From contig JAXMHR010000011.1 of assembly GCA_046346705.1 (NCBI GenBank), forward strand, positions 101,812 through 165,811: a stretch of 64,000 nucleotides of DNA. Direction: 5' to 3'. The position numbers and the translations under genes were made by a program. The notes beneath the pieces are model-generated. The model made no database searches. It saw nothing but the letters and a program-made list of their open reading frames with translations, and was not told where the DNA came from. The first letter of the stretch is position 1. Every line of letters begins with the position of its first letter. Source of the DNA: Verrucomicrobiota bacterium (GTDB taxonomy: Bacteria; Verrucomicrobiota; Verrucomicrobiia; Limisphaerales; UBA9464). Positions 8,916-34,600 of the stretch are shown piece after piece.

Positions 8916-11900
8916 CTACTTTTTCCCCAGATTGGAGAGATAGGTCGCGAGGTCCCGGACTTCCTCCCGCGACAGCGTATCGAGAAGTCCGGCCGGCATC
9001 AGGGAGCCGATCTGCCGACGTTCCGCCACCTGCCTCGTGGCGAGGCGGACGACCTGGCCGGTAAGGTGATCGAGAATGGCCACCTCTTCGGGAGTCTCGC
9101 CGCGCAGGTATCCCTGGTAGGCTTCGCCATCCCGGGTGGTGATCTCGAAGGCGACGAAGCCCTCCTTGACCTCCTTTTGTGGCTCCAGCATCGCGCCGAG
9201 AACAAACTCCACAGTCTGCGAGGTTCCCAGCGCGCTCAGGTTGGGGCCAATCTTTCCGGGCGTACCGTCCACGCTATGGCATTGGGCACATCCAAGCTGC
9301 GGAGAAAGAAAGAGCGACGCTCCCCGCGTTGGATTTCCGGATTCCCGGACCTCGCGGGCCAGCACGGGAATGTCCGCGGGGGAAACCGTGCGCGTCGGCG
9401 CCATGCCCGAAGAGGCCCGGGTGAAGATGGCGGCGAGTTCGGCGTCACGGCGTCCGGACGCGGCCAGGAGTTGGAGGGCCACCCGCGCGGCTTCGGGGGA
9501 GGGAGGTGTGGCCCCCAACGCGGCGATGAGGTCGGGGATGGAATCCCGATGCTGGAGGAAAACCGGGAGCAGGGTGGGCGTGGTAGCGGCGCCTCCGGCT
9601 TCGGAGGACCACAACGTCGCCGCGGCCTTTGCCGCGGCCTTCGGATTTTTGCGCACGAGTCCTGCGGTGGCTGCAGCGCGGATCGGCACCGGATTGGGAT
9701 CCGCGGCCAGTTCGATCAATCGTGCCTTTGCCGGATCGGAGTCGAATCCGGCCAGACCCTCGGTGGCTCCCAGTTGAGCCAGCGGATTCGAAGGATCCGA
9801 ACTGCTGGCGAGGAGTTGGGGCAACACGGACTCGAGGTGCCAGGTACCGGCGAGTCGGAGTGCTGCGGCGCGGACGGCCGTATTCGTGGACGCCAGCAAC
9901 GGACGGAGGGCCGCATCCAGGTCGCCGTCGGGCCGGATGCCGCGGTTTCGGGAAACGGTACCCAAACGGTTCAACCATTCCGCATGTCGGCTCGCATCGT
10001 ACACCGGGCCGGCGCTGAAGGTCCTCAGCGCCAGAATCACCCCGAGGTCCTTGGGGTCGCCGGCGTCGGCAACCGTCTGCAACAATTCCTGTCGCGTCGC
10101 GTCTTCAAGGGCGACTTCGGAAATCCGGCGGAGACGTCCGGCGGCTCGGGACACGGTGTCGGCGCTGTGATCGGCACGGGTAAACGCGGTGAGGCGGTTG
10201 GCCTTGCCGCCGAAGGTCAGGGAACCGGACTCCAGAGCGGGGCGCCACCAGGGTTTGAGGGCCTGGACACACTGGACGAAGGCGTATTCCAGTGCGGAAT
10301 CCATCGGGGAATCCGTTGCCATGGCGGCGACCTCCACAGCGTGGGCATCCGGGACATAACTGCATGCGACGACCGCTTCGAGACGGACCCTCGGATGCGG
10401 GTCCGCGACCAGGTGCTCCAACTGAGCGAGGCGGAATGCCTGTTCGGTCGACGACGGCGTTGCGGATGAGCGTTCCGCCCAATGCCCGAGAACACGGGCC
10501 GCGTAGGCGCGGGCCTCAAATGCTTTGGCGTCTGCGAGCGTCTGCAGGAGGTTGGTTTGGACCAGACCGTGGTCGGTCAGAACCCCGAGGATCTCGAAAA
10601 GGTGCGCTTCGGAAGCTCCGGTTCCGGCGCGGCTGAGCCACCGGGTGGTCGCGGCGGACACGTCGGCGGGAAGGCGTCCCGCCAGGACACGGTGCGCCAT
10701 CTGCCGGGTCCAGCGGTCCGGGGATCCGAGATCCCCCACCAGTTCGTCGATGCCCCGCGTGCTCATCGGAATCGGAGCGCCCGGTCCGGGGCCCGACCGT
10801 TTCGGCGCGATGCGCCAGATGCGTCCGTGGGTTTTGTCCCGGGCCGGATCGCGGAAGCTGGCCTGGTAATGCCCGATGACCGGGTTCGCCCAGTCGCAGA
10901 GGTATAGTGCGCCGTCGGGACCGAAGCGGACGTCCACGATGCGGAAGGAGGTGTCCGAGGTTTCGATCAACGGGGCCAGGCGTTCGACCCGGAAGGTCGA
11001 TCCGTCGTCGGTGACGCGAAACCGTTCGACGGTGTTCTGGAGGTACCCGCCGGCGACAAACTCCCCCTGCTGCGCGGCGGGCCAGATGCGATTCTCCACG
11101 ACGTCGGCACCACCGAACTTCCGTCCCTGATTCCAAAGGGCCTTCTGCTCCAGGAAATGATCGGTGCGGATCATGGCCTGGGTGAGGTGATAGATGCCGT
11201 GCCCGTTGCCCGCGAAGACGAGGGGTTGTCCCCATCGGTCGAAGACGTTGCCGAAGGGATTGTGGGCTCCCATGGCGCCATCCCAGAACGCATCGAGGCG
11301 CTGCTGCCGCGGCCAGAATCTCCAGACGCCCGCCTGCCGGAGTTCCGCGATGCCCCACGGGGTTTCCACCCGGGAATTCGCATGCAATCCCTGGCTCATC
11401 AGGAGTTCGCCGCTGGGACCCCAGGTGAAGGAGTTGAGCGTCTGGTGTGCGTCGCCGGTGCCGAATCCGCTGAGCACCACCCGGCGTTCGTCCGCGCGCC
11501 CGTCTCCGTCGGTGTCCTTCAGGAAGAGGAGTTCGGTCGCGGCCCCGACATAAACCCCGCCGTCCCCGAGTTCGAGTCCGGTCGGGATCTGGAGTCCGTC
11601 GGCAAAGACGGTGGATCGGTCGGCACGGCCGTCGTGATCGCGATCCTCCAGCATGACGATCCGGTCGTTCGCCGGCTCCCCGGGCACGATCTGGGGATAG
11701 GTGACGCTGCCAGCCACCCAGAGGCGTCCGTCGGGGTCGAATCGGATCTGGATCGGTTTGACGATGCCGTTGGTTTCGGACGCGAAGAGGCTGACCTCGT
11801 ATCCGTCGAGGACCTTGAACGCGGCGAGCTGCTGGGCTGGATCCGGCACCGGAGCGGCCACTGCCGCGACCGCCTTCAGCAGGATGCCGACGCCCAGAAT

Positions 11901-11945
11901 GGAGGTCAGGGCTCGGAGGGAAGGATGGAAACGGAGCGGGTTCAT
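8916..11945 (-). CDS. PVC-type heme-binding CxxCH protein (membrane-bound dehydrogenase-like beta-propeller + HEAT repeats + C-terminal cytochrome c)
   Basis: Internal start MNPLRFHPSLRALTSILGVGILL (signal peptide). Contains DPDGRLWVA, DRDHDGRAD and DTDGDGRAD propeller-region motifs, a long HEAT-like middle, and a C-terminal GCAQCHSVDG heme c site. This is the Pirellula/Verrucomicrobium-type architecture. Confidence 0.85.
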   Translation of the reverse strand: MNPLRFHPSLRALTSILGVGILLKAVAAVAAPVPDPAQQLAAFKVLDGYEVSLFASETNGIVKPIQIRFDPDGRLWVAGSVTYPQIVPGEPANDRIVMLEDRDHDGRADRSTVFADGLQIPTGLELGDGGVYVGAATELLFLKDTDGDGRADERRVVLSGFGTGDAHQTLNSFTWGPSGELLMSQGLHANSRVETPWGIAELRQAGVWRFWPRQQRLDAFWDGAMGAHNPFGNVFDRWGQPLVFAGNGHGIYHLTQAMIRTDHFLEQKALWNQGRKFGGADVVENRIWPAAQQGEFVAGGYLQNTVERFRVTDDGSTFRVERLAPLIETSDTSFRIVDVRFGPDGALYLCDWANPVIGHYQASFRDPARDKTHGRIWRIAPKRSGPGPGAPIPMSTRGIDELVGDLGSPDRWTRQMAHRVLAGRLPADVSAATTRWLSRAGTGASEAHLFEILGVLTDHGLVQTNLLQTLADAKAFEARAYAARVLGHWAERSSATPSSTEQAFRLAQLEHLVADPHPRVRLEAVVACSYVPDAHAVEVAAMATDSPMDSALEYAFVQCVQALKPWWRPALESGSLTFGGKANRLTAFTRADHSADTVSRAAGRLRRISEVALEDATRQELLQTVADAGDPKDLGVILALRTFSAGPVYDASRHAEWLNRLGTVSRNRGIRPDGDLDAALRPLLASTNTAVRAAALRLAGTWHLESVLPQLLASSSDPSNPLAQLGATEGLAGFDSDPAKARLIELAADPNPVPIRAAATAGLVRKNPKAAAKAAATLWSSEAGGAATTPTLLPVFLQHRDSIPDLIAALGATPPSPEAARVALQLLAASGRRDAELAAIFTRASSGMAPTRTVSPADIPVLAREVRESGNPTRGASLFLSPQLGCAQCHSVDGTPGKIGPNLSALGTSQTVEFVLGAMLEPQKEVKEGFVAFEITTRDGEAYQGYLRGETPEEVAILDHLTGQVVRLATRQVAERRQIGSLMPAGLLDTLSREEVRDLATYLSNLGKK

Positions 11946-12841
11946 CGAACCTCCTTGTGGGCGGTGTCTGCGGTTTTCCAGATCTGTTCGTCCGCCTGTT
12001 GGATCAGCGGAACAAACTGTTCCATCTCCGCGGGGAACCAGCGGATGTTTCGGTCGCGGTGATCGCGACTGCTGGGTTGCTCGGTCCGGTCTCCGGCGAG
12101 GAAGGCCCAGTTCATGGGGCGCGTGTAGTCGAACCAAAGACGATTACGGACGACGACGGCCTGACGAACCGCTTCCAAGTCGGGAACGATGAACCGTCCC
12201 CGGGAATCGGTTTCGGATCGGGAGCGGACTACGGGCCCGACGAGTCCTTCAGCCACCGCCCGCCCGACATGGGCATCCCCGACATCCGGCGAGGCGCCGG
12301 GTTGAAGGTCGAGGAAGGGGATGTTTCTCCGGGAAGCCAGGGTTCGAATGCCGGCGGCGTAGTTTGAAATCGCGGCGAGTCGATCAGGGGAGGATGGGAC
12401 ACTGGAGGGCGGAACCGGGGCCACCAGGATTTGACGGGGGGTCACGGCGTTCACCTCGTCGAGCAGGAGCGCGTAGGCCTCCAGGAAGCGGGGGAGTTCC
12501 TTGGGGCCGGCGAGGGATTCCATTTCGCCGAACTGGACGAGCACCACCGTGGCACCGGCCGAGCGCAGTTGTTGGGTCAGCGGGGGATAATTGAGTTCGC
12601 GCGGACGGGAGAAGACCGTGTCGCCTTCCCACGCGAGTCCGCGCCAGCGCAGTTGATCTGCGGGCCGGGCCGCGGCCACCAGCGATTCGGCATAGCCACC
12701 CTTTTCCAGAGCGACCATCCGGGTGCCTCCCAGAACCGCGACCACGTCGTGGGGTTGGAGGAGGGGGCGGTCCTGTCCAGCGGCGGCGGACAGTTCCATC
12801 GAAAGCAGCAGCATGCCGCAGAAAATGCGAACCGGTTTCAT
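11942..12841 (-). CDS. SGNH/GDSL-like hydrolase, secreted
   Basis: Internal start MKPVRIFCGMLLLSMELSAAAG (signal peptide). The overall layout is SGNH-like (VVAVLGGTRM, VVLVQFGEMES, NIPFLDL). Its stop overlaps the ATG of the downstream heme protein (ATGA at 11942-11945). Confidence 0.6.
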   Translation of the reverse strand: MKPVRIFCGMLLLSMELSAAAGQDRPLLQPHDVVAVLGGTRMVALEKGGYAESLVAAARPADQLRWRGLAWEGDTVFSRPRELNYPPLTQQLRSAGATVVLVQFGEMESLAGPKELPRFLEAYALLLDEVNAVTPRQILVAPVPPSSVPSSPDRLAAISNYAAGIRTLASRRNIPFLDLQPGASPDVGDAHVGRAVAEGLVGPVVRSRSETDSRGRFIVPDLEAVRQAVVVRNRLWFDYTRPMNWAFLAGDRTEQPSSRDHRDRNIRWFPAEMEQFVPLIQQADEQIWKTADTAHKEVR

Positions 12842-12869
12842 CGGAGAGCCGGGCGGAGTGTGCCCACGA
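12800..12869. repeat. 70-bp direct repeat, left copy (5' end and leader of the SGNH gene)
   Basis: Matches 16175..16244 with 6 mismatches in 70 nt by hand alignment. The spacing is 3375 bp. Confidence 0.85.
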
Positions 12870-12954
12870 GGGTTGGAAGGGCCAAGCCAGTTCGGAAACG
12901 GGTCAGACCGGCTGCGTGCGGTGGTCAGTCGCGCCACTGCGGAACAAATCCGTG

Positions 12955-13884
12955 CTAGGGAGCAACCCCTGGAAATGGATACGGTCCGTTCATTCGTTCC
13001 CAGAGCCAGAGAAAATCCGGATTATTCGGCGTACTGCGGGACCACTCGAAGAACTCCGTGTTGTTGCGAATCACCGGCGAAGTCCTCGGATCCCGCCATT
13101 TGTGCAACTCGGCATGCCCGTCGGCAAAGGTCATGGCGCCGACGCGGCCGTGACGCGCGGCCGGCACTCCCTCCCACAGCCCACGGGGTCCTCCGTGCCA
13201 GATGACCCGGAAGACGCCCAGATTGATCGTCGATTCATGCTCGTCGATGAACACGAAGATCTGCGACGGCGACGTCCGGTTGAAATCCGCGGACCGCAGA
13301 AACGCCGTGGGTGAGTAGCTCCATTCCTCGGATTCCGGAATCTCGGAATTCCCGCTGTGCCCCACGCCATCCCCCAGCACGATGTATTGATTCATCGAAT
13401 AGCTGCGAACCCGACTTGGCCCGCGGCGTCCGTAGATATCCATTGTGCTGCGGTCCGCGGGGCAATGAAAGACACCGGCCGTCTTCAGGTAGGGTCCCAA
13501 GTGTCCGGGCCCTGGAGCCAGCAGCAAACTGCTGTTGGTGCGGGCGCCGACGCGGTCGTCCCAGGGGCTCATGTAACCGTTCACCCATCGGGCGCCATTC
13601 GGAAACACCGCATCCGTTTCCGAAGGAGAAAGCCAGTCGTTGTGGTCCGGAGCGTAGAGCATCCAGGCCAACTGGAGTTGACGAAGATTGTTCAGGCAGG
13701 CGATGGCCTGCGCCCGATCCCGGGCTTTCTGCAGGGTGGGCAGCAGGAGCCCGGCGAGAATGGCAATGATGGCGATCACCACCAGAAGCTCGATCAGGGT
13801 GAATCCCGGCACCCCGCTCCGGACGGCGACCGAACGGGACGTCCCGACGCGACTCCGTCCTGATCGATTCCGTCCCGAACTCAT
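12955..13884 (-). CDS. prepilin-type N-terminal cleavage/methylation domain protein, H-X9-DG family (pseudopilin-like)
   Basis: [45 protein letters not shown]-terminus and a C-terminal [13 protein letters not shown] (H-X9-DG). Confidence 0.85.
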
Positions 13885-13896
13885 GGATACTCCCGG

Positions 13897-14661
13897 TCAC
13901 TCCGGTCGTCGCAACCGGAAGAACCGGTCGGCATCCTCCGGCGGAAGGTCGGCGGAGGTGCCCCCGGCGGGATAAGGCTCCCAAACAACCAGAGGCGACA
14001 GGCTGCGGGTGCTTTCCAGAATCCAACTGGATGTCCCCGGGGGCCAGTACAGGCGGACACCAGCGCTCTCAGGGAGAATCTCCGACGCAACGGGAATCGC
14101 CGGGGGAAACCCCGCCCGGATCGGTGCGTTAGGAACGGGATTCCAATCGAAACCACCCACCGTGAACAGGGTCTCCGGCTTGGAGTCCGGCCGAACAAAT
14201 CGAACCCACGCAAAGTGAGGCCCATCCTCGGTTCGAATCCTCACACCGATAAGAACATCAGTTCTCAATCCAGCGCCGATTGGGGAATTTCCTCCTGCCT
14301 GAAAATAATACCAGATGTTGGCTGACGAATCCCATTGCGCTATAAATCCGCAAAGAGGAGCGACATTCTGTTCCGTATTCGGGTTCAAATAGGATGGGCT
14401 CGAACCAGAAATCTCTGCGCCTGATTCGAAAAACGAATCCTTCGTGGTCCTTCCCAAGAGGACCGATCCATCGGTAGGAATCACGCCCGCACTCCCGGTC
14501 GCCAAGTCACCAACCAGGGAATACGAATACTCGTAAACCAGATCAGTGTTGCCATCCCCAATAAAATCAAACACTGCAAGATTGGTGCTGACCTGCGGGG
14601 GATCAGAAGCCAGCAACGAAACGCTCGCCAAGAAGAATGCCACTACACCCATTGGATTCAT
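13897..14661 (-). CDS. secreted hypothetical protein with C-terminal (Y/F)FRL tail module (copy 1, intact)
   Basis: Start chosen at MNPMGVVAFFLASVSLLASDPPQ (signal peptide). Ends ...WILESTRSLSPLVVWEPYPAGGTSADLPPEDADRFFRLRRPE. I recognise no family. Confidence 0.7.
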   Translation of the reverse strand: MNPMGVVAFFLASVSLLASDPPQVSTNLAVFDFIGDGNTDLVYEYSYSLVGDLATGSAGVIPTDGSVLLGRTTKDSFFESGAEISGSSPSYLNPNTEQNVAPLCGFIAQWDSSANIWYYFQAGGNSPIGAGLRTDVLIGVRIRTEDGPHFAWVRFVRPDSKPETLFTVGGFDWNPVPNAPIRAGFPPAIPVASEILPESAGVRLYWPPGTSSWILESTRSLSPLVVWEPYPAGGTSADLPPEDADRFFRLRRPE

Positions 14662-14965
14662 GCAGTGTTTTGGAAACCTGAAAATCTGAGCGTTTAATCG
14701 GGGGATGGCGCGTGGGTTTACGCGACTTTCGGGAAACATGGTAGGAAGTTGTCCGCCTTCCCGCAGAGTTTCAATTCGATTCCTTCCAGTGAGAGGCTTC
14801 TTTCGAATGGGTGCTGGTCTTGTGGGGTTGACCCACATGCGTCGAGGCATCGTTGAATCTTGAATCTAAGGAGACTCGGCCGGCAGGTACTTCGCCTCGG
14901 CTCGCCATCGCTCCGTGGCAGGCTGGTTGCAATCGAATCGTCTCGGAACTCATGGATACCTCCGC

Positions 14966-15731
14966 TCACTCCGGTCGTCGCAACCGGAAAAAGCGGTCGG
15001 CATCCTCCGGCGGAACGTCGGCGTAGGTGCCGCCGGCGGGATAAGGCTCCCAAACAACCGGAGGCGACAGGCTGCGGGTACTCTCCAGAATCCAACTGGA
15101 TGTCCCCGGGGGCCAGGACAGGCGGACACCGGCGCTCTCAGGGAGAATCTCCGACGCAACGGGAATCTCCGGGGAAACCCCGCCCGGATCGGTGCGTCAG
15201 GAACGGGATTCCAATCAAAACCACCCACCGTGAACAACGTCTCCGGCTTGGAGTCCGGCCGAACAAATCGAACCCACGCAAAGTGAACTTCAGTGTCTGC
15301 ATGCGAATTCGGGCGCCCACAATAACGTCGGTCCTCAGGCCAGCGCCGATCGGAACATTTCCACCCCCAAGAAAATAATGCCAAATCAGAGCATCTGGAT
15401 CCCATTGGGCAATAAACGCAGTCAACGGGAGTGCGTTCTGGCCCGACTTTGGATTCAAATAGGGTTGATTGGATCCTGAAACCTCGGTCCCTCGTTCAAA
15501 AAACGGATCCTTTGCTGTCCCTTCCAAGATCACCGTATCGTCAGCAGGTAATACGCCTCCTCCCCCACTCGCTATATCACCCACGAGAGAATATGAGTAT
15601 CTGTAAATTAGGTCAGAGTTTCCGTCTCCAGTAAAATTAAACACTGCAAGATTGGTGCTCACCTGCGGGGGATCAGAGGCCAGCAACGAAACGCTCGCCA
15701 AGAAGAATGCCACTACACCCATTGGATTCAT
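14966..15731 (-). pseudogene. frameshifted paralog of 13897..14661 (copy 2)
   Basis: The signal peptide is identical. The reading frame breaks near 15290-15300 (ARIRMQT then out of frame; HFAWVRFVRPDSKPETLFTVGGFDWNPV continues in another frame). It breaks again near 15165, where CCGGGG replaces the CCGGGGG of copy 1. The span is 766 nt versus 765 nt in copy 1. Confidence 0.75.
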
Positions 15732-16026
15732 GCAGTGTTTTGGAAACCTGAAAGCCTGAGCGTTTAATCGGGGCATGGCGCCTGGGTTTACGCGACTTTC
15801 GGCAAACATGGTAGGAAGTTGTCCGCCTTCCCGCAGAGTTTCAATTCGATTCCTTCCAGTGAGAGACTTCTTTCGATGGGTGCTGGTCTTGTGGGGTTGA
15901 CCCACATGCGTCGAGGCATCTTGAATCTAAGGAGACTCGGCCGGCAGTTACTTCGCCTCGGCTCGCCATCGCTCCGTGGCGCTTTGGTCGCAATCGAATC
16001 GTCCCGAAACTCAAGGATACCTCTGC

Positions 16027-16086
16027 TCACTCCGGTCGTCGCAACCGGAAAAAGCGGTCGGCATCCTCCGGCGGAACGTCGGCGTC
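16027..16086 (-). pseudogene. remnant of a third copy (last ~18-20 codons only)
   Basis: The reverse strand reads DVPPEDADRFFRLRRPE-stop. Similarity to copy 2 stops at 16086. Confidence 0.7.
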
Positions 16087-16174
16087 AACAAGGCAACTGA
16101 GACTGCATACCTCACACAACAACCGAAGACTCTAGTTCTCATTTCCTTTCCCTCCGTTTAATTAAAATAAACAC

Positions 16175-16244
16175 CGAGAGCAGTAGCCCGCCGCAGAAGA
16201 TGCGAACCGGTTTCATCGGAGAGCCGGGCGCAGTGTGCCCACGA
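16175..16244. repeat. 70-bp direct repeat, right copy, carrying a 25-aa stub ORF (16139..16216)
   Basis: Copy of the SGNH gene leader and first codons. The stub reads MKPVRIFCGGLLLSVFILIKRRERK-stop and runs into an AT-rich filler. Confidence 0.85.
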
Positions 16245-16265
16245 ACAAGGGAAGCGCGAGCCTGG

Positions 16266-16305
16266 AAACAAAACGGCGGGCGGGCCAAACCACAGCCCGT
16301 CCGCC
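16266..16305 (-). terminator. Rho-independent terminator after the 689-aa gene
   Basis: The minus strand reads GGCGGACGGGC-tgtggtttg-GCCCGCCCGCC followed by GTTTTGTTT, beginning 24 nt after the stop at 16329. Confidence 0.7.
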
Positions 16306-16328
16306 TTGCAAGGGGTGTTGTTGTTGAC

Positions 16329-18398
16329 TCAGGGCATCAGTCGGAAATACCGGGTCTGACCACTCGTCGGAACAACGACGGAGTTTCCGGAAACGCCGGG
16401 AACGGTCTGCCAGTCGGGCTGGGCCAGGGATCCGCTTCCCTTCAAGGTGAGTCCGGTGGTGTCTCCGGTCCAAGTGAGCCGCAGGCCTTCGGACGTGACC
16501 GCCGCGGAGATCGCGGGAGCTTCGGGGGCGATGGAGTACAATCCGAAGTCGTCGACACCCCAGTACCAACTGTCGGTCCCCGCATAGGTGAAGCGGAGGC
16601 GCACGGTCTTCGCGCCGTCGGCTTTGGGTAGACGGTATTTCTCGATGCGTTTGGATTCCTTTGAGTTGTCGTCCACACGACCCTGAATGAACGGTGCCAG
16701 CGACGCATTGATCGGGGCTCCGATAAAGGCGCCATAGGTTCCGCCTACGTCATTTCCTGCATCGTCGGAGTAAACGGCGATGTCATTGGCCGACGTGGTC
16801 AGCGTGGCCTCAGCGTCCACGTCGCCCGCTTCGGTCCGGATGATGTCTCCCGCGTTGATCAAGTACGCGACGGGCAGCCAATTGGCGCCGCCATCCACCG
16901 AATACTCCAGAGCCCCAATGCTGTCCTGATTCTGTTCGTAGAGACTCTTGAAGACCACGTACACCGAATCCTTCCCGGTGAGATTGTAGTCGGGGGTTGT
17001 GATGGACAGGACCTGGCTGCGTCCGTTGCGGTATCCGGAGTCGCCGAAGAGCATCCGACCCGACGCCAGCGGTCCGTCAACCTCGGCTCCGTTGAGGACA
17101 TTGTTTCGGTTCGGCGTGAGCACGCGCTGGTAATCGGTTCCCCAGTCCGCCGGATTTTCCGGATTGCTGTACGTTACAAAGGATCCCGTGAAGCGGTTCA
17201 CATCCAATACGACCCAGTTGGCAAACGAGGCGGAGTCCAGATTCCCGAGATCGAGATCGGGGTTCTGAACCTCGGTGTGACTGGTGAGGGTCCAGCCCGC
17301 GGGAACCTGGCCTTCGGGGGTGGAATCGAAGTTCTCGAAGTAGAGCGGCGCGGGGAGGACGATGTTTTCGTACTGGACCGTGGTGAAGGATCCCTTGGCG
17401 GAGATCGCGGTGGGTTTCGAAGCGTCGTCCGTGAAGCTGAGTTCGTAGGTGTGAGCGGAGAGGGGAAGGGAAATGCCGGCATTGGTGTAGCTGACGGTGA
17501 CCAGTCCGTTGGCGGACGTGACGACTGGCTGAACCGACGCTCCGTCGAGCTTCAACCCGATGCTGGACAGCAGCACGGAACTGGTGCCGTTGGTGATCGT
17601 GGCGTTGAACCGGATCCGCGGTTCGACGCCCGTCGCTCCGTCCGCCGGGCGGATCGAGAGGAGGCGGGGCAGATTGCTCGAGGGCGCGCCAATCGTGAAC
17701 GCCTCGCTGGCCAGCACGTCGTAGCCGTCGTTTCGCAGGAAGAAGGCGACGTACCGGCCCGGGGTGGTGAGGCCACCGGAGAACTTGACCGATCCGTCGG
17801 TCAGGGCGACCGCGCCGTTTTGGGTTCCATCCACGTAGAGGTAGCGCGTCGAGGAGATTCCGGAAGTCCCGGGTACTTCGTTTTCCTTGTAAAGACCGAT
17901 CCAATCGAGGGCGTTGCCTGGGCCTGATGCAAACGTCACCGTGATGTCTTCATCCGTTGTGTAGAGGCGTTTCGCGACGTGCACCGTCGGGGTGCCGGCC
18001 TCCACGACCTGGAAGGTGGTTTCCGCCGCGATGGTGTAGCCGTCATTGAGGAGCAGGTAGGCCTTCCAGGTTCCCGCGAAGCTGAGTCCTCCGGGAAATG
18101 GGATCACGCCTTCCGTAAGTCCCGTTGACCCCGCCCGGGTTCCGTCCACGTAGAACCACAGGGTCGACGTGGTTCCCTGGGCTCCCGGGACCGCGTCCGC
18201 GGGATAAATGCCGATCCAATCGAGGGGACGGCCCGGACCACCGGAGAATGCGATGGAGATGTCCTCCCCGATGGCGTAGCTATCGTGATTCGCCACCACG
18301 CTTGCGGTTTGTGCGGCGACGGCGAGCGGGAGGATGCCGATCAGCCCGGTCGCCCAGCGGAGGAGTCGGGAGAATGGAGACTGGAGGTTGGCTTTCAT
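16329..18398 (-). CDS. large secreted protein: two DWIG(I/L)Y repeat modules, Ig-like region, MAM/choice-of-anchor-J-like domain, (Y/F)FRL tail
   Basis: Signal peptide MKANLQSPFSRLLRWATGLIGILPLAVAAQT. Two ~115-aa internal repeats. ENFDSTPEGQVPAGWTL and RLRFTYAGTDSWYWGVDDFGLY resemble the choice-of-anchor-J/MAM style. Ends ...GQTRYFRLMP. Confidence 0.75.
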   Translation of the reverse strand: MKANLQSPFSRLLRWATGLIGILPLAVAAQTASVVANHDSYAIGEDISIAFSGGPGRPLDWIGIYPADAVPGAQGTTSTLWFYVDGTRAGSTGLTEGVIPFPGGLSFAGTWKAYLLLNDGYTIAAETTFQVVEAGTPTVHVAKRLYTTDEDITVTFASGPGNALDWIGLYKENEVPGTSGISSTRYLYVDGTQNGAVALTDGSVKFSGGLTTPGRYVAFFLRNDGYDVLASEAFTIGAPSSNLPRLLSIRPADGATGVEPRIRFNATITNGTSSVLLSSIGLKLDGASVQPVVTSANGLVTVSYTNAGISLPLSAHTYELSFTDDASKPTAISAKGSFTTVQYENIVLPAPLYFENFDSTPEGQVPAGWTLTSHTEVQNPDLDLGNLDSASFANWVVLDVNRFTGSFVTYSNPENPADWGTDYQRVLTPNRNNVLNGAEVDGPLASGRMLFGDSGYRNGRSQVLSITTPDYNLTGKDSVYVVFKSLYEQNQDSIGALEYSVDGGANWLPVAYLINAGDIIRTEAGDVDAEATLTTSANDIAVYSDDAGNDVGGTYGAFIGAPINASLAPFIQGRVDDNSKESKRIEKYRLPKADGAKTVRLRFTYAGTDSWYWGVDDFGLYSIAPEAPAISAAVTSEGLRLTWTGDTTGLTLKGSGSLAQPDWQTVPGVSGNSVVVPTSGQTRYFRLMP

Positions 18399-18443
18399 GG
18401 AATTGAGGTGAATTGAGAGGTGCCTGAAGAAAAATGTTCGGGG

Positions 18444-18941
18444 CTAAGGGGAACAGACCACCGGAATGGAGCCGTTCGCTCCGAGGGAGGTCCATTCGGA
18501 GACGATCCGTTCGCCTTCGGGGGAGGCGAGGGAGAACCAGTTGGTTTCACCGACACGGCGGACCAAGCGGAGGGACTGGGCGGCGGTCCGTCCGATTTCG
18601 GGAGCGGTTCCGGCCGCGCGGGCTGCATCGAGCTGGGATTTCAATTCGGGGGCGCAGGTTTCGAGGTAGGCGATGGTCCAGGAAGATTTATCCTCGGGCT
18701 TTCCCGTCGGCGAAACCACCACCGCGCGCACGCCGTCCTCGGCCGGGTCATTGATGCCGCGAATTGGAGGAACCAGTCCCCGTTCGGCAATGAAGAGTTT
18801 CTTTTCACTGAGGTCGTAGAAGAAGGCTTGTTCTGAAATTCCGTGGGTGTCGTGGAAGAACCGCCAAGCCAGGATTCCGGCAACTGCCAGCAGGGCGATG
18901 GCCAGGAGCGCCTTGGGGATGGAGGGTTTTCGGGCGGACAT
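18444..18941 (-). CDS. membrane-anchored hypothetical protein (165 aa)
   Basis: N-terminal anchor KALLAIALLAVAGILAWRFF. Starts 12 nt after the upstream pilin-like gene and ends 45 nt before the 689-aa gene, so an operon is likely. Confidence 0.6.
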   Translation of the reverse strand: MSARKPSIPKALLAIALLAVAGILAWRFFHDTHGISEQAFFYDLSEKKLFIAERGLVPPIRGINDPAEDGVRAVVVSPTGKPEDKSSWTIAYLETCAPELKSQLDAARAAGTAPEIGRTAAQSLRLVRRVGETNWFSLASPEGERIVSEWTSLGANGSIPVVCSP

Positions 18942-18953
18942 CCGGAGCGTGTT

Positions 18954-19775
18954 TCAATGCGGGTCCGCTTCGGCTGACCACCAGCATTCGTTGGTGTTGC
19001 AGGGAATCCGCCCGGCATAGAGCAGTTCGGCCCGACCGTCCGCAAAAGTGTAGTTGGATTTTCCGGCATGTCGCACGGAACCCTTGTCCCCCTGGGCGAC
19101 GCGGTTGAATCCGGCGCTGTTGGCGTTGCCGATTTCCTTCCAGATCCACCAACGGTCCCGCGGCCAGACGCCGTTCACGTCGCTGTGTCCGTCTCCGAAG
19201 AGGATCAGGCGCGACGGCGATACGATCTGGGGCCAGCGGCAGAGATTGTTTTCGTATCCGGCGGGACGTCCAAAGGGAGGGCGCGCTCCCCCCGCATTCC
19301 AGTGCACATTGACGGCTCCGAGACCGCTCGGGATGTCGAGTTCCTTGTCCGCAAAGGTGCCCAGGAGGGCTTTGTTTCCGGCGCCCTGTTTCATGCCTGA
19401 AGGACGGCCGGACGCATACGATTCGACCTTCTCCGCGGGGCAGTCATAGACCGACGGCGTCTTTCCGACGTAGTTGAACAAGAAGGGGCGCCAGCAGGTT
19501 TCCCCGTTGGGAATCCGCGCCTGGATGGGCGGCAGTCCGTCGGCGTTGTCCCCGGAGTACATGTGGGTGGCCAGCGCCAGCTGCCGGAGATTGTTGAGAC
19601 AGGCGATGCCCGTGGCCCGAGCCTTCGCCTTGCTCAAGGCGGGAAGGAGCATCGACGCCAGGACCGCAATAATGGCGATCACCACGAGCAGTTCGATGAG
19701 GGTGAAGGCCTTCCCTCGCAGCAAATGTCGCCGCCACGTCGGGGCAGGGCGGGGCATGAGGGACGCGGTGTGCAT
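18954..19775 (-). CDS. prepilin-type N-terminal cleavage/methylation domain protein, H-X9-DG family (second copy)
   Basis: [44 protein letters not shown] and [13 protein letters not shown] (H-X9-DG). Confidence 0.85.
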
Positions 19776-19924
19776 TCGGATGATGAGCGTGCAGAGCCTA
19801 GGGTCGTCGTGGATTCAGGCCATTGCCCGTTTGGGGGGGCGATGAGAACCCGATTGTCACCGGGGCGTGACCCGGCCGTTTCCGGTCCCCCAACCCGGAG
19901 TTCGAGGACCGTGTTGGCAGCTGT

Positions 19925-21289
19925 ATGATTCCTCCCAATCGGTGCTTCCGGGGGCCCGGGTTTCGGGGGCGGCGTGGAATCGGATTGCTGTTTCGGGCCG
20001 GAACCCTTGAAAGTGTCCAAGCAGTGTCCAAGCCAATCGCAGAGGATCCCCAATCCGCGCCGGGCTACTGGCGGACGCGACTGTTTCGCAACAGCTACAC
20101 CCGGGGCGGGCAGCGGCGCGAGGTCCAGGGTTGGCGGGTCAAGATTCAGATGCTGGGCCGCCGCAGGACCTACCGCCTGAGGTCATCGGCGCGGGAGGCA
20201 GCGGCGCGCGAAGCCGTGGCGTTGTTTCGATCCCTCCGGGGCGGGCGCGAGGTGGCGGTGGCTTTGAAAGATGCAGGAAATGGAGTGGAGGACAACCTGG
20301 CACGGGGTGCCACTCACCCGGGGCGGCCGGGAATCCAAAGGCTCCGGTTGGTCCGGCGGCCGTACGTCCCGGTTTCCTCAGGAAGTGGTGTTTGGTCAGT
20401 CTGGCTGGAGCGGGAGGGGCAGGGTCACTATTTCCCGCTGGGAACGGAGGATATCGAGGAGGCGGAACGCCGTGCCCGGCGTCTGCAACTCCAGTTGGCG
20501 CAGGAGGGGATGGAACTGCTCACCCGGCGTCATCCCCGGGAAGCCACGGTGGCCATTCGATGGTGCGCCGATCCCATCATGTGGAGTTACTTTTCCCTGC
20601 ACACGGCGCCGGGAAAGCCGGTGACCGTGACCCGGCGAAGGGCTGAATTGTTGTCCCTGGCGGTTGTCGAGCCCGACGACGGTTTTGGGGCGGCGTTGGT
20701 CTCCTGTCTGAATTCGCAACCCGGGTGCCGCGTTGTCGGAGCGTGGGGACGGGCGAGCGAGGCGCTCGGAATCGTGGCGCGACTAAAGCCGGATTTGATC
20801 CTGGTCAACCAGACGTTGGACGGCATCCCGGGAGCGGATTTCGTCACGCGCCTGTGTCAGCTCGAACCAGGAATTGCGACGCTCGCGTATTCCGTCTGCG
20901 CGGATAGTGACGAGTTGTTCAAGTCCACTCCCGGCGGTGCCGTCGGTTATCTGTTGCGGCGCACGCCTCCGGACCGGGTGTTGGAACCCTTGGAAGGGCC
21001 TCCGTTCTCGGGGCGACCGGACTCGACGGCGATGGCGGTGAGAGTTCGGCGATATTTTCAGCAGTTGGTGGGGGCGCCGGTTCTGTCAGGTGGGTCCGTG
21101 ACGCTGTCGCGGTTAACGCCGCGGGAGTTGGAGATTCTGGCCCTGATGTCCAAGGGATTCCTCGACAAGGAAATTGCCCGCGATCTCCGGATCAGTGTCT
21201 GGACGGTTCATGGGCACGCGAAGAAGATCTATGAGAAGTTGGGCGTTCACTCCCGGACTGAGGCGGTGGTGAGGTATTTGCAGAAGTGA
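19925..21289 (+). CDS. LuxR-family regulator with receiver-like domain (probable pseudo-receiver) and long N-terminal extension
   Basis: C-terminal LTPRELEILALMSKGFLDKEIARDLRISVWTVHGHAKKIYEKLGV is a LuxR/FixJ HTH. The receiver-like region reads LAVVEPDDG...PDLILVNQTLDG...GAVGYLLRRTP. The start codon is uncertain. Confidence 0.75.
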   Translation: MIPPNRCFRGPGFRGRRGIGLLFRAGTLESVQAVSKPIAEDPQSAPGYWRTRLFRNSYTRGGQRREVQGWRVKIQMLGRRRTYRLRSSAREAAAREAVALFRSLRGGREVAVALKDAGNGVEDNLARGATHPGRPGIQRLRLVRRPYVPVSSGSGVWSVWLEREGQGHYFPLGTEDIEEAERRARRLQLQLAQEGMELLTRRHPREATVAIRWCADPIMWSYFSLHTAPGKPVTVTRRRAELLSLAVVEPDDGFGAALVSCLNSQPGCRVVGAWGRASEALGIVARLKPDLILVNQTLDGIPGADFVTRLCQLEPGIATLAYSVCADSDELFKSTPGGAVGYLLRRTPPDRVLEPLEGPPFSGRPDSTAMAVRVRRYFQQLVGAPVLSGGSVTLSRLTPRELEILALMSKGFLDKEIARDLRISVWTVHGHAKKIYEKLGVHSRTEAVVRYLQK

Positions 21290-21457: not shown

Positions 21458-22858
21458 TCCAGGTTCAATACATGGGTGACAGTGGAGGTTCAGAACATGG
21501 GTGACACAGTGACCATGGAAGAGAGGGCAGCGAAGCTGCCCGCATGCCTTGGCAGGAGACCCGAGCGATGGACCAACGGATCGAGTTTGTGATGAAGGCG
21601 CTGAACCACCCGAACTTTGGAGAGCTGTGCCGGGAGTACGGGATTAGCCGGAAGACCGGGTACAAGTGGCGTGAACGGTTTGTGGAGCACGGACTGGGTG
21701 GGCTTGGGGAGCAGAGCCGGCGACCGCATGGGCATGCGCACCAGCTGTGCGAGGACGTGGTATGCGAGTTGGTACGGCTGAAGCGGGGGCATCCACACTG
21801 GGGGCCGCGCAAGATCCGGGAGCTGTACCAGCGGCTGCACCGCGGGGCGGAGGTTCCGAGCGAGAGCAGCTTCAAGCGAGTGCTGGAGAAGGCCGGGCTC
21901 ACAGAGCCTCGCCGAACCCAGGTGGCGCGGGCCGGGGCCGGCTGGCCCAGGGGCTCCGGGCGGAGGCGCCGAACGAGGTCTGGAGCGTGGATTTCAAGGG
22001 GTGGTGGCGGGACCGGAGCGGGGCGCGGGTCGAGCCGCTGAGCGTGCGGGACGAGCACAGCCGGATGATTTTGGAGCTAAGAGCGGTTCCGGACGCGCGG
22101 ACGGAGACGGTGCGAGGCCCGCTTCGAGGAGTTGTTCCGACGGCACGGGCTGCCCGGGGCGATCCGGAGCGACAACGGGCCGCCTTTTGCCAGCGCCCAG
22201 GGGCTGTTGGGACTGAGCCGGCTCTCGGTGTGGTGGCTGGCCCTGGGGATCCAGCTGGAGCGGAGCCGACCGGGGTGTCCGCAGGACAACAGGGCGCACG
22301 AGCGGATGCACCTGGACGTGAGACGGGAACTGCAGGCGGGCCGGATTGGGGACAGCGAGGCGGCCTTCGAGCAATGGCGGCAGGAGTTCAACACAGAGCG
22401 TCCCCACGAAGCGTTGGGGATGAAGACGCCAGCGGAGGTTTACAGGCCCTCACCCCGGAGCTTCGAAGGGACTCCGGAGGCTCTGGACTACGAGGGACGA
22501 GAGATCCGGCGCGTGCTGGCGCACGGGAAGATCAGCTTTCATGGTCACGGGATCTACATCAGCGGAGCACTGGCGGGATGGGACGTGGGGCTGGGCGATC
22601 AGCACGGGGAACGGATCGAGTTGTGGTTCGCCCACCTGCTGCTGGGCCACCTGAACGCGGAAACGATGAGCTTTGAGCCGTTGCGGGCTGGCGGGAGTTC
22701 CGGCCCCGGGGTGGCTTCCGCTTCGCTCCAGCCGACCCCGGGGCCTTCACTCCCGCCAGTCTCATCCCCCTTTAAACCAACCCCCAACCTGTACCCCCCA
22801 CCCCCAAAAGTGTTACCTATGTTCTGAACCAAAAGTGTTACCGATGTATTGACTGGGC
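21458..22858 (+). mobile_element. IS481-family insertion sequence, decayed
   Basis: Terminal inverted repeats TCAATACATGGGTGACA... (left) and ...TGTTACCGATGTATTGA (right). Each end carries two subterminal copies of GGTTCA(A/G)(T/A)ACAT(G/A)GGT(G/A)ACA. A possible imperfect 6-bp duplication CTGCGG/CTGCGC flanks the element. End positions are good to about 7 nt. Confidence 0.75.
21544..22827 (+). pseudogene. IS481-family DDE transposase, two frame disruptions
   Basis: N-terminus MPWQETRAMDQRIEFVMKAL...YGISRKTGYKWRERF...RRPH (HTH). The DDE core APNEVWSVDFKGWW...LSVRDEHSRMILEL lies in a different frame (about 21930-22110). GLPGAIRSDNGPPF...TERPHEALG returns to the first frame. Confidence 0.8.
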
Positions 22859-31693: not shown

Positions 31694-34600
31694 CTAGGGG
31701 ATGGCCGGAGTCAGGATCCTGAAGTAGCGATCTCCGTCGGACAATGTCCCGGCCGGGAGGGTGACGGTGCCATTGCTTTCTCGCGCGGGGACCTGTTGCG
31801 CGAGAGTCCATTCTTCGGCGGTAAGGCTCTTGCGGCGTTGGACGGTGTAGGTTCGTCCCGCCACGGCTTGAAAGCGAATGGACACCGTACCGTTGTCGGA
31901 CGCGAACGCCTCGACGGCCAGGCTGCTGGCGGCATTTTTCGGGTCAGTGCCCGCAAGGAACTCGTCGAGATTGGAGAATCCGTCCTGATCCGGATCGAGA
32001 CCGGAGTCATCGGTGCGCGGATCGAGTCCGTGCGCCGTTTCCCAGTCGTCCGGCATGCCGTCCGAATCGGAATCACCGGGCAGCCCGCCAATGCGATTGG
32101 GCGCCTCTGGGGTGGGCGTCACCGGGAAGGACGCCAGGATGTCGGCGCCATCGGGCAGGCGCCCCTCGGAAATTCCATGTCCCTGGGCACCGAAGCCGAG
32201 GGCGTCGAGCGTCAGGCCGGATCTTGCAAACAGACCGAGGGTGGATCCGTCCTTCGACAGTTTGAAGTCGGCGTGATTCCCGCCCGCAGCGGGCTTCTTG
32301 TCGGCGAAAACCTGAAGGTAACCGTCCCGTCCGGTCCCGATGAAGGACAGCGGGGGGAAGGGGGACTTTGCGATGTCAGCCAGGTCATCGGTGACGGCGA
32401 GTCCGTGGAGGGCGACGGGTGCGGCGTCGGGATTGAAGATCTCAAACCAATCGGAGCCGACGGCCGGGTCGGCCATCCATTCGTTCAGACGGAGGGACGT
32501 GGGCGAACCCAGTCCGGCGCGAAGATTCGCGGTGTCCGGCGCCGGAACCGTGAGTTCCCAGTCGCCACCTCCGTCCGGAACCCGGCCGACCCCGAAGTCC
32601 GCCGCCTGGAGTCCATAATGGAGCGCGTCCAGAACAGCGCCGCCTGCAGAACTTCGGTCGGAAAGGAACACGCTGCCCCCCCGGGCGGAAAGGCCGAAGC
32701 CGGTGTTGGTTCCGGACGCCGGCTGGGTCGCGTCGAAACGGATCGTCCGGAATCCCTTTGGAGGCAGCACCGGGCCATCGGGGAACTCCCACTTCCTGGG
32801 CGTTGCGGCGTCGTCACTAAGGGCGAGTCCCGTCAGGACGACGTCGTTGGTGCCGGGATTGTAGAGTTCGACCCACCCGGCCAGGTTCCCATCGGGGAGG
32901 GCGCGGGTTTGGTTTCGCGCGAACACTTCGTTCAGAACGACGACGGGCGCCGAGCCCGAGGTGGTGTTGGTGATGGATTCCAGTGCACCAAGGGCCATGG
33001 CAAACATCACGTCCGAACTGGAGCTGCCGGACTGATGGACCTCCACGGCGAGGACATTGTCCCCCTCGCGAAGGTGCGTCGCGGGAAGGGAAAGGACCTC
33101 CGCCTGCCCCTCGTCGGGTTGGAGGGTGGCGTCGCTGGTGTAGCGCGCGGGATTATCCGTAACACGGAGCGCACCGATCCGGAATCCGTTGAGGTAGTAC
33201 ACGGCACCGTCGTCCAGATAGTTGGTGGCGTGGAGGGTCCAGCCTGCTCCGGGCGCGGGTGCCTGGAAATGGGTCCGGAAATAGTACGTCTTGATGTGCG
33301 TGCCATTGGGGGCCGTGATAGGCAGCGGTGTCGCGATCCGGATCGGATAGGGGTAGGGCGTGCTGGTCTCAAGTCCCAAGGGAGCGGCTCCGGAGGACCA
33401 GGATCCATCCGCGAACTCCGGAGTCGTCCATGCGGAAGGCGCTTCGGTCAGGCCGGCGAGATACTTCCATTGGGTGCCGAAGCCAATGAGCGGTGTACTC
33501 ACGTAGGTGACGTTGGTCGATCCGCCGCCCCCCGAACCCGGATTCGGAGCCCCTGGAGTCGGTTCCCGGAACAGGGCAAATCGGTCCGCTCCGCTCGGAG
33601 TGCGTCCTTCGGAAACATCCGTCTGCTGGGGGCCATAGTTGATGGTGTCGATGGGGGTCAGCTCCGGGTCGGAGAGCTGAAGGATTCCCGACTCGGCGGC
33701 GAGCTTGAAGGGGAGGTGTCCCGGACGCCCCAGGTCATCGCCATCGGCACGCAGACTCAGGCAGCTTTCCGCTGCGATAAAGGATAGCGGAGGGAAAACA
33801 TAGCGATCCTGCATTCCGGCGGCGTCAGTGAGGTAAAGCCCGGCGAGCGAGACCGGACGGGAATCCGGGTTGTACAGCTCCACGAAATCGTCCGCATAGA
33901 GGAAGCGGGCGTTGGCGAGCCACTCATTGATTCGAAGCGTTTTTGGGGATCCGGTGGACACCGCGTGGTTGGGCGCGCCGAAGGTGGGGCGGCACAATCC
34001 CCATGAGCCGTCAGCGCGTCGTCCCAACGAGACGTCGGCCACCTGGAGTCCAAACGTCACGGAGTCCACCCGCTGGCCGCCTGCGGAGGCCGGTGCGGTC
34101 AGGAAAACAGAATCGCCCTCCTGTTTGAGCGCGAACCCGGTGTGAAGTCCGGGGGAGGCGGTGTCACTGTCGGCGAGCAGCACAAGGTACGTGCCGGGAT
34201 CCAGTCGGATTCCGTCGGGCAATCGGTACCGGTAGGGAAGGGATGCGTCGTCGGACAATCCGTAGCCGCCGAGATCGACGGCGGCTTGGCCGGAGTTCAC
34301 GAGTTCGATCAGGTCCGGGGTGGTTTCACCGCTGGTGAAGCTGGTGGTGTTTCGGGCAAGGACCTCGTTGATCCGCACCGTCGGGCCGGCGGGCGGAACG
34401 AAATTCGGGTCCACGGTCCATTCCGCAGTGGTGCTGACCGCCGCATCGTCCCCGAAGAGCGGGTCGTCCTGATAAAGTCCTGAATCGCGTCGGCCGGTCA
34501 CATCGACCCTGTGGTTTCCCGGGGTGAGGTTCGCGAGGATCAGGGATTCGGCGATGGGCGTTTCAACGCTCCAGGCGCCTCCGTCCAGCCGCCACCGATA

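Follow-up and report, generated by a model that had tools for sequence, protein, structure and literature searches.

The DUF1559/H-X9-DG proteins are among the largest paralogous families without an assigned role in Planctomycetota and Verrucomicrobiota, with 68–74 copies in each of two model planctomycetes, and no role or partner was found for them in the literature searched. Which genes, if any, accompany such proteins in a regular way? This question is raised by a locus in the genome of a Verrucomicrobiota bacterium from wastewater, where two prepilin-type genes, named here pilin1 and pilin2, lie among genes for secreted and membrane proteins. They encode the only prepilin-type open reading frames (ORFs) in the window, that is, in the whole 64-kb stretch of DNA that was analyzed. 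An earlier reading of the same DNA, made from the letters alone and referred to below as the original prediction, took some 8.5 kb for a single locus bracketed by the two pilin genes and equipped with its own LuxR regulator. The analyses presented here show that this stretch consists of two independent cassettes and not of one unit. Cassette 1 comprises pilin2, anchor165 (a 165-aa membrane protein) and big689 (a secreted protein of 689 aa), and it is the first consistent genomic partner set for the H-X9-DG family, found in at least 61 species. Cassette 2 comprises two tandem copies of a secreted-protein gene, dupB and dupA, followed by pilin1.

A conserved unit of pilin, membrane anchor and secreted protein

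Conservation was evaluated in a species-level scan with one genome per species, on 80 loci carrying a big689 homologue, nearly all of them in metagenome-assembled genomes of Verrucomicrobiota. Orthologues of pilin2 and anchor165 were found upstream of the big689 homologue, with order and strand kept, in 61 of the 80 loci. The other loci show a pilin gene immediately 5' without the anchor gene (3/80), an anchor gene with a divergent pilin (1/80), unrelated genes (9/80) or an intervening contig end (6/80). When only the 74 loci with upstream sequence are counted, an H-X9-DG pilin lies immediately upstream in 65. The genes are closely packed: in the window exactly 12 nt separate pilin2 from anchor165 and 45 nt separate anchor165 from big689, and the median gaps across 54 species are about 7 and 48 nt respectively. 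Identity among orthologues ranges from 60 to 88% for pilin2, from 41 to 67% for the anchor and from 46 to 85% for the 689-aa protein, pilin2 being at least as conserved as its cassette partners. Clustering of the flanking ORFs of the 80 loci revealed no further neighbour kept in more than 12 loci, and no machinery or regulator gene that is conserved along with the three. In six loci of one clade (L030, L035, L037, L045, L070 and L076) the cassette is immediately preceded, on the same strand, by a gene for a PilT-like ATPase of about 365 aa with a T2SSE domain (69–665 nt upstream of pilin2). Elsewhere, cassette 1 is neighboured by an OmpR-type regulator with a kinase or by housekeeping genes.

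Folding of the sequence behind big689 revealed, 24 nt past the stop codon, a 12-bp GC-rich hairpin (16275–16305, minus strand) followed by a U-tract (16265–16274); it reads GGCGG-ACGGGCU...GGCCCGC-CCGCC then GUUUUGUUU. An automated terminator scan had missed this hairpin because its loop limits were too narrow. A scan for the σ70 consensus gave no matches, including in the 149-nt region between pilin2 and the LuxR gene. Together, the synteny in 61 of 80 species and the tight gaps show that pilin2, anchor165 and big689 form one conserved operon-like unit, which the terminator-like hairpin closes in the window. The original prediction had proposed this operon with the same 12- and 45-nt gaps, and the proposal is borne out in related genomes for these three genes.

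Both pilins carry the prepilin N-terminal domain (PF07963: 30.2 bits for pilin1 and 28.1 bits for pilin2, cut-off 21.2; TIGR02532: 29 and 27.5 bits, cut-off 16.3) and H-x9-DG near the C-terminus, in agreement with their first description as H-X9-DG prepilin-like proteins. In pilin2 the processing site is K-A↓FTLIELL and the motif is H236-x9-D246G247. The family model TIGR04294 matched pilin2 with 19.4 bits (cut-off 19) and 20 of its 53 orthologues at E≤0.01; pilin1 shows the motif by pattern, yet the TIGR04294 hidden Markov model (HMM) gave no match at E≤0.01. The prepilin N-terminal domain was matched in all 53 pilin2 orthologues. The processing site of pilin2 is invariant, and so is Glu5, a residue needed for filament assembly. 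The N-terminal helix of pilin2 aligns with those of solved type IV pilins and of GspG, and beyond this helix no solved relative was found. Four to five cysteines are conserved in pilin2 and one in the anchor, at its C-terminal ...VVC(S/T)P. An intermolecular disulfide between the odd Cys179 of pilin2 and Cys163 of the anchor was considered and rejected because cysteine losses do not coincide across species. As for pilin1, the assembler word depth rises from about 10 to 100–300 over its helix-encoding part (13647–13888), with many loose ends; this stretch recurs near-verbatim in many pilin paralogues of the community, and short-read assemblies break there.

The anchor165 protein has a single N-terminal hydrophobic helix, predicted to span the membrane, followed by an extracytoplasmic domain of about 135 aa, as expected for the membrane-anchored protein that had been announced. 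Its 54 orthologues occur solely between pilin2 and the 689-aa gene, and none of them gave a Pfam, NCBIfam or PDB match when all 54 were scanned at E≤1.

The big689 protein, for its part, was correctly described as secreted and multidomain. A signal peptide is followed by two SKICH-like β-sandwiches (residues 33–237), an Ig-like Big_5 domain (245–340), a jelly-roll of about 270 aa resembling Reelin subrepeat B (350–622) and a C-terminal tail (628–689) that ends in ...RYFRLMP, these domain names being drawn from weak but recurrent Pfam matches across 30 homologues. The AlphaFold2 (AF2) model has a mean predicted local distance difference test score (pLDDT) of 87.9, with values below 50 for residues 1–28, i.e. 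the signal peptide. There are more than 350 full-length homologues at about 50% identity, none of them named. Mean column conservation is highest in the jelly-roll (0.73) and amounts to 0.54 in the tail; 27 of 30 mature homologues contain no cysteine. A profile search against PDB sequences gave no match, and the PilC/PilY1 β-propeller was not matched by Pfam in big689, whose model is entirely β-sandwich and jelly-roll. Comparison of the whole model with PDB structures by Foldseek was set aside as a functional lead, since it returned generic multi-Ig proteins only (TEP1, α2-macroglobulin, complement; TM<0.2). No enzyme family or fold was found in big689 by Pfam, NCBIfam, Foldseek or the PDB profile search, and the HMM searches assigned none to the 254-aa dupA protein either. 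The cargo proteins are thus not enzymes, which supports the original prediction on this point.

The duplicated genes, pilin1 and the shared tail

Cassette 2 contains a tandem duplication. The tandem unit measures 1069 bp and is present in two full copies, dupB and dupA, plus a 56-nt remnant of a third. The copies are mosaic: the 5' leader and signal peptide are 94–100% identical, the mature N-domain 64–72% and the C-terminal half with the tail 92–96%. In the window sequence dupB is interrupted by two frameshifts, at about 15300 and at 15170–15174. Contigs from three independent short-read runs depart from the window at precisely these sites, being two bases shorter at 15300 and having an extra G after 15170; with both changes dupB becomes an intact, tail-bearing ORF of 253 aa. 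The frameshifts are an assembly error or a strain variant, and the reading of dupB as a pseudogene was set aside because independent assemblies lack them both. The two differences lie inside the tandem repeat and break dupB in the window sequence only, which suggests local assembly or polishing errors in repeats. The tandem duplication of a secreted gene is real, as had been claimed, and its description is corrected as regards the third-copy remnant and the dupB frameshifts.

The dup genes have a GC content of 56%, compared with about 62–64%, and a GC content at third codon positions (GC3) of 0.52–0.57, compared with 0.72–0.8. In addition, an 83-nt repeat at 16175–16257, covering the 5' end of the downstream GDSL hydrolase gene and the region upstream of it, is 86% identical to 12800–12882. 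Because of this lower GC content and the flanking GDSL duplicate, the dupB-dupA-pilin1 segment (12955–15731) looks like an insertion between the 689-aa and GDSL genes. The GDSL gene is then the ancestral downstream neighbour and stands outside the cassettes. As pilin1 and the dup genes are absent from this neighbourhood in the other 79 species, the single bracketed locus of the original prediction had to be abandoned.

Two further loci are informative on this point. L086 is the window organism (97.5% nucleotide identity) and has an identical gene order. L087 (7024–9194), with 76–87% protein identity to the window, shares the insertion in a hybrid pilin2-anchor-dupA-like arrangement. The genes there run from LuxR through pilin2, the anchor gene, a fragment of the GDSL 5' end, a dupA-like gene and a pilin1 with an internal deletion to GDSL and the haem protein gene. 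The GDSL fragment is longer there (87 codons) at the equivalent place, only the first 62 and the last 19 codons of pilin1 are left, and the dupA-like gene is intact. The lack of big689 and the reduction of pilin1 in L087, next to an intact pilin2, anchor and dupA-like gene, show that closely related lineages differ by decay or recombination of the cassettes.

No Pfam or NCBIfam match was obtained for dupA, and only 12 homologues were found among 5.8 billion proteins. The protein consists of a variable N-domain and a conserved C-terminal half with the tail: compared with its relatives, dupA is 78–94% identical in the tail and 36–66% in the N-domain. In the window pilin1 begins 12 nt downstream of dupA. 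A dupA-like gene followed within 4–12 nt by a pilin1-like gene was also found in L088/L089, L090 and L091, so that with the window the pairing occurs in four unrelated contexts. Between L088 and the window, identity is 94% for pilin1, 78% for the dupA tail and 37% for the dupA N-domain.

The tail is a β-sandwich of about 65 aa ending in [YF][FY]R[LV]. It is present on big689, on dupA and dupB, and on a 2214-aa protein with five Lamin-tail domains (LTD) and a CotH domain. Alignment and tblastn cross-matches demonstrate the homology of these tails, in accordance with the earlier claim that the proteins have one C-terminal tail module in common. The 2214-aa protein is secreted (31694–38338, minus strand), its CotH domain is kinase-like and its tail ends in ...DRYFRILTPAIP. 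The tail gave no Pfam or NCBIfam match even at E≤1, and did not score as the sorting domain of the type IX secretion system (T9SS; PF18962/TIGR04183). A search of 1.84 billion representatives with a profile built from the three window tails yielded 1165 clusters. Of the 150 top-ranking clusters, about 83% have the tail at the extreme C-terminus, in host proteins of 52–1353 aa. An unannotated C-terminal domain with more than 1100 protein clusters is thereby defined, which could be a sorting tag.

The link between tails and pilins was evaluated on 80 metagenome loci centred on pilin1-like genes (481 kb), in which the ORFs were searched with the tail HMM. All six tail-bearing ORFs lie within 706 nt of the pilin gene and share its strand; four are its immediate upstream neighbours. 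As 29% of the flanking sequence is within 1 kb of a pilin, the binomial p is about 6e-4, for a test that rests on six ORFs in a sample biased to pilin1 relatives. Of the six relatives closest to pilin1, four are neighboured by a tail protein. The tail partners found near pilin1-like genes contain F5/8 type C domains, six TIG domains with DUF11, or lectin-like domains, and in L082 the pilin is followed by a 1056-aa tail protein with three Laminin_G_3 domains and an Ig domain. Among these pilin-linked partners only binding-type domains and no enzyme folds were found. In the sequences flanking the 80 genome loci, co-occurrence was not significant (8 other pilins, 2 of them tail-adjacent; 108 of 500 shuffles). 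These data indicate that the link between pilin and tail genes is real but partial. The claim that H-X9-DG genes are tied to tail proteins accordingly stands as an association above chance in the samples taken, and fails as a general rule, most of each being unlinked.

A possible filament accessory module and its alternatives

We tentatively read the region, with a little less than an even chance of being right, as a pair of accessory modules belonging to a type IV filament system (a pilus, or the pseudopilus of a type II secretion system, T2SS) whose machinery would be encoded elsewhere. This reading is drawn because a pilin is fixed beside a lectin-like protein, the C-terminal end of the partner is conserved, its N-terminal parts vary and PilT is occasionally adjacent. 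It also draws on cassette 2, in which the dupA tail and pilin1 are conserved together (78–94% and 94%) while the N-domain diverges (36–66%). In such a module a dedicated H-X9-DG pilin would be processed by prepilin peptidase and would enter the inner membrane and the filament via its N-terminal helix. It would then serve as the carrier of the adjacent lectin-like β-sandwich protein, big689 in cassette 1 and dupA/dupB in cassette 2. After export by Sec, this partner would dock on the pilin through its C-terminal tail, with [YF][FY]R[LV] as the last strand, to be either displayed on the filament or driven through the outer membrane. The anchor165 protein may act as an assembly or holding factor specific to cassette 1, and the variable N-domains of dupA/dupB and the conserved jelly-roll of big689 would be the ligand-binding parts. 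We infer the docking, the incorporation into a filament, the localization at the surface and the function of the anchor by analogy with known systems.

The same genes could be a T2SS cargo module in which big689 is the substrate, anchor165 a tethered chaperone and pilin2 a cargo-specific pseudopilin, the product being released and not displayed. The N-terminus of pilin2 does score best with GspG-type pseudopilins as well as with pilins, and NCBI names its orthologues 'type II secretion system protein'. The GspG/H/I/J equivalog models, however, stay far below their cut-offs and cover about residues 22–84 only, with the N-terminal helix (TIGR01710: 29–35 bits against 88.85; the others lower). 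The confinement of the anchor to this cassette would suit a dedicated chaperone, and membrane-anchored accessory proteins beside T2SS cargo are documented (PMC4713064); on the other hand, anchor165 shows no detectable similarity to chaperone families, and both cassette 2 and the metagenome pairs lack an anchor. Moreover, PilT, the neighbour in six loci, is a pilus-retraction ATPase and not a part of the T2SS. We consider this alternative unlikely.

Another doubtful alternative dispenses with the filament: the H-X9-DG protein would be a membrane-anchored periplasmic binding protein, forming with the anchor and big689 a periplasmic or inner-membrane complex that captures, senses or takes up a polymer. 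The DUF1559 proteins have been regarded as solute-binding (PMC2754498), as the Pfam name SBP_bac_10 recalls, and their number per planctomycete genome far exceeds what any filament needs. The many invariant polar and aromatic residues in the loops of pilin2 would fit a binding site, and regulators adjoin the cassette in several lineages. Yet the DUF1559 model (PF07596) scores below its cut-off (18.4 and 20.5 bits against 23.3) and aligns over about the first 40 of its 268 positions, even if a precomputed PF07596 match is present on some pilin2 orthologues. In addition, the conserved unit includes no transporter gene, and the invariance of the processing site and Glu5 speaks against this alternative. 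Finally, mere co-location or co-expression of envelope genes, with the tail as a common domain, is very improbable: the tail does occur in at least 1165 clusters of very different proteins, sometimes in arrays, and the majority of both tail proteins and H-X9-DG genes lack such a link, but 61 species preserve the gene order, the strand and the single-digit gaps where all other neighbours vary, pilin/tail-protein pairs recur independently, and pilin1 is conserved together with the tail half of dupA.

Several observations weigh against the reading as filament accessory modules. The AF2 model of pilin2 is of low confidence (pLDDT 67), and Foldseek matches only its pilin helix. Nine big689 paralogues or orthologues without pilin and anchor still keep the tail; conversely, in L087 big689 is deleted and pilin2 and the anchor are intact. 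No pilin gene lies near the 2214-aa LTD/CotH tail protein, 74 of the 80 pilin1-like genes have no tail neighbour, and 9 of 11 tail proteins in 1.24 Mb have no adjacent pilin. A few proteins (P0253, P0254 and P0306) contain 6–8 tandem tail modules, from which it follows that the tail is a repeatable β-sandwich domain and goes beyond a terminal tag; it may simply be a common domain of this kind. No type IV filament machinery genes were evident in the 64-kb window, which was read by eye and not scanned gene by gene, and none of the RNA runs checked for co-transcription contains the sequence.

Despite these points, the fixed partner set (pilin2, the anchor and the lectin-like 689-aa protein) and the link between a pilin subfamily and the tail constitute a concrete hypothesis for the role of the H-X9-DG family. 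If true, it would explain how abundant bacteria of freshwater, soil and wastewater present binding proteins at their surface. A wider generalization can be formulated, which we hold to be improbable for the time being: H-X9-DG proteins would be interchangeable docking subunits of filaments, and the tail a phylum-wide tag that hands lectin-like and other proteins over to them. This would amount to a 'split modular pilin' pathway of display or secretion, with a role comparable to that of the T9SS C-terminal domain of Bacteroidota, and the cassettes described here would be cases in which tagged cargo and pilin are still encoded together.

Neighbouring genes and comparison with known systems

All genes between 11.9 and 19.8 kb of the window are on the minus strand, and their coordinates agree with those of the original prediction. 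They follow each other in the order pilin2, anchor165, big689, an intergenic stretch with remnants, dupB, dupA, pilin1, the GDSL hydrolase gene and a gene for a haem-binding protein of the PVC (Planctomycetota, Verrucomicrobiota and Chlamydiota) type.

Table 1. Features of the two cassettes and their surroundings (window coordinates).
Feature	Position	Strand	Description
pilin2	18954..19775	-	273-aa prepilin-type protein; opens cassette 1
anchor165	18444..18941	-	165 aa, bitopic membrane protein; second gene of cassette 1
big689	16329..18398	-	secreted protein, 689 aa; third gene of cassette 1
Intrinsic-terminator-like hairpin and U-tract	16265..16305	-	closes cassette 1; from RNA fold
83-nt duplicate of GDSL 5' end	16175..16257	-	repeat family D6; one boundary of the inserted segment
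Remnant of third dup-gene copy	16030..16085	-	repeat D3; last codons ...DVPPEDADRFFRLRRPE and stop
dupB	14966..15731	-	small tail-bearing secreted protein, second copy
dupA	13897..14661	-	254-aa secreted protein, tail ...RFFRLRRPE
pilin1	12955..13884	-	309-aa prepilin-type H-X9-DG protein; last gene of cassette 2
GDSL/SGNH-type hydrolase gene	11942..12841	-	outside both cassettes; PF13472 29.5 bits, below cut-off
LuxR/FixJ-type regulator	19925..21289	+	divergent from pilin2
Divergent intergenic region, presumed promoters	19776..19924		149 nt, from pilin2 to LuxR gene

The LuxR protein has the NarL/FixJ architecture, with a receiver (PF00072, 38.5 bits, cut-off 30.2) and a GerE/LuxR helix-turn-helix domain (PF00196, 59.7 bits, cut-off 23.5). 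In the receiver, Asn295 aligns with the phospho-acceptor residues Asp55 of VraR and Asp59 of NarL, an Arg occupies the position of Lys109 of NarL, and Asn is found at the phospho-acceptor position in seven of seven orthologues. Judged from these residues, the receiver is an atypical pseudo-receiver, in keeping with the earlier suggestion that it is phosphorylation-dead. The N-terminal extension of about 240 aa (19925–20650) matched no family with confidence (weak matches to DUF6417 and DUF6538 only) and contains two Arg-rich segments of similar pattern. The gene adjoins cassette 1 in about 7 of 61 loci, all in the closest relatives; in other loci this place is taken by an OmpR-type regulator with a kinase, PilT or unrelated genes. 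The view of the LuxR protein as the cassette's own regulator is thus not upheld.

On the far side of the LuxR gene, before a Rieske oxygenase gene, lies a transposase of the IS481 type, encoded in two frames (HTH_32/LZ_Tnp_IS481, then rve_3; 21544–22827, plus strand). It is probably frameshifted. As the LuxR and Rieske genes are adjacent in L087, the transposase is a recent insertion. At the other end of the locus, the GDSL gene overlaps by 4 nt the gene for the haem-binding CxxCH protein (8916–12841 for both, minus strand), which has DUF7133, HEAT-repeat and cytochrome c domains. The two genes are adjacent in L086 and L087 as well, and are probably a separate operon.

The components of the cassettes are of known kinds, namely type IV pilin-like proteins, β-sandwich adhesin-like proteins and an atypical response regulator; neither this cassette nor the tail was found described in the literature searched. 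With the DUF1559/H-X9-DG family (PF07596, TIGR04294) the two pilins share the N-terminal prepilin domain and the C-terminal H-x9-DG, but pilin2 stands apart as a highly conserved group of orthologues whose neighbours are fixed. The Verru_Chthon cassette A–D (TIGR02596–TIGR02600) is likewise a PVC-lineage cassette that includes prepilin-like proteins. Its other gene content is different, however, and its protein D model (TIGR02596) aligns with the N-terminal 26 residues of the pilins only, i.e. with the helix, at 20–21 bits against a cut-off of 70. In Acinetobacter, CpaA/CpaB and LipA/LipB also combine a small membrane-anchored protein with an adjacent secreted protein (PMC4713064). They have no sequence similarity to the proteins studied here, and a chaperone role of anchor165 would be pure analogy.

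Closer parallels are offered by type IV pili. In the PilC/PilY1/MshQ proteins, the last ten or so residues complete a β-sheet of the PilK-type minor pilin (PMC13533445). As in these systems with PilK/GspK, a large non-pilin gene lies here beside a pilin gene, attachment by a C-terminal strand is proposed, and conservation of the docking end goes with variable N-terminal 'effector' parts. In contrast, our cassettes have neither a β-propeller nor a PilI/J/K-like trio; each has one H-X9-DG pilin, to which cassette 1 adds a bitopic protein. The putative docking element is a 65-aa β-sandwich tail that hundreds of unlinked proteins carry as well. The minor-pilin adapters CofB-CofJ and TcpB-TcpF (PMC8179133, PMC6048534, PMC9565799) resemble the proposed modules in that a pilin acts as adapter for a soluble, Sec-exported protein encoded in the same operon. 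They differ in that the N-terminus of their cargo binds the pilin and that their genes are part of a full pilus operon, whereas the cassette described here stands alone and its conserved element is C-terminal. Lastly, the modular pilins PilB and PilC of Streptococcus sanguinis (PMC8179133) likewise combine a pilin carrier with lectin or adhesin modules (concanavalin-like, vWA). These modules are fused in one polypeptide, whereas in the proposed cassettes carrier and module would be two gene products.

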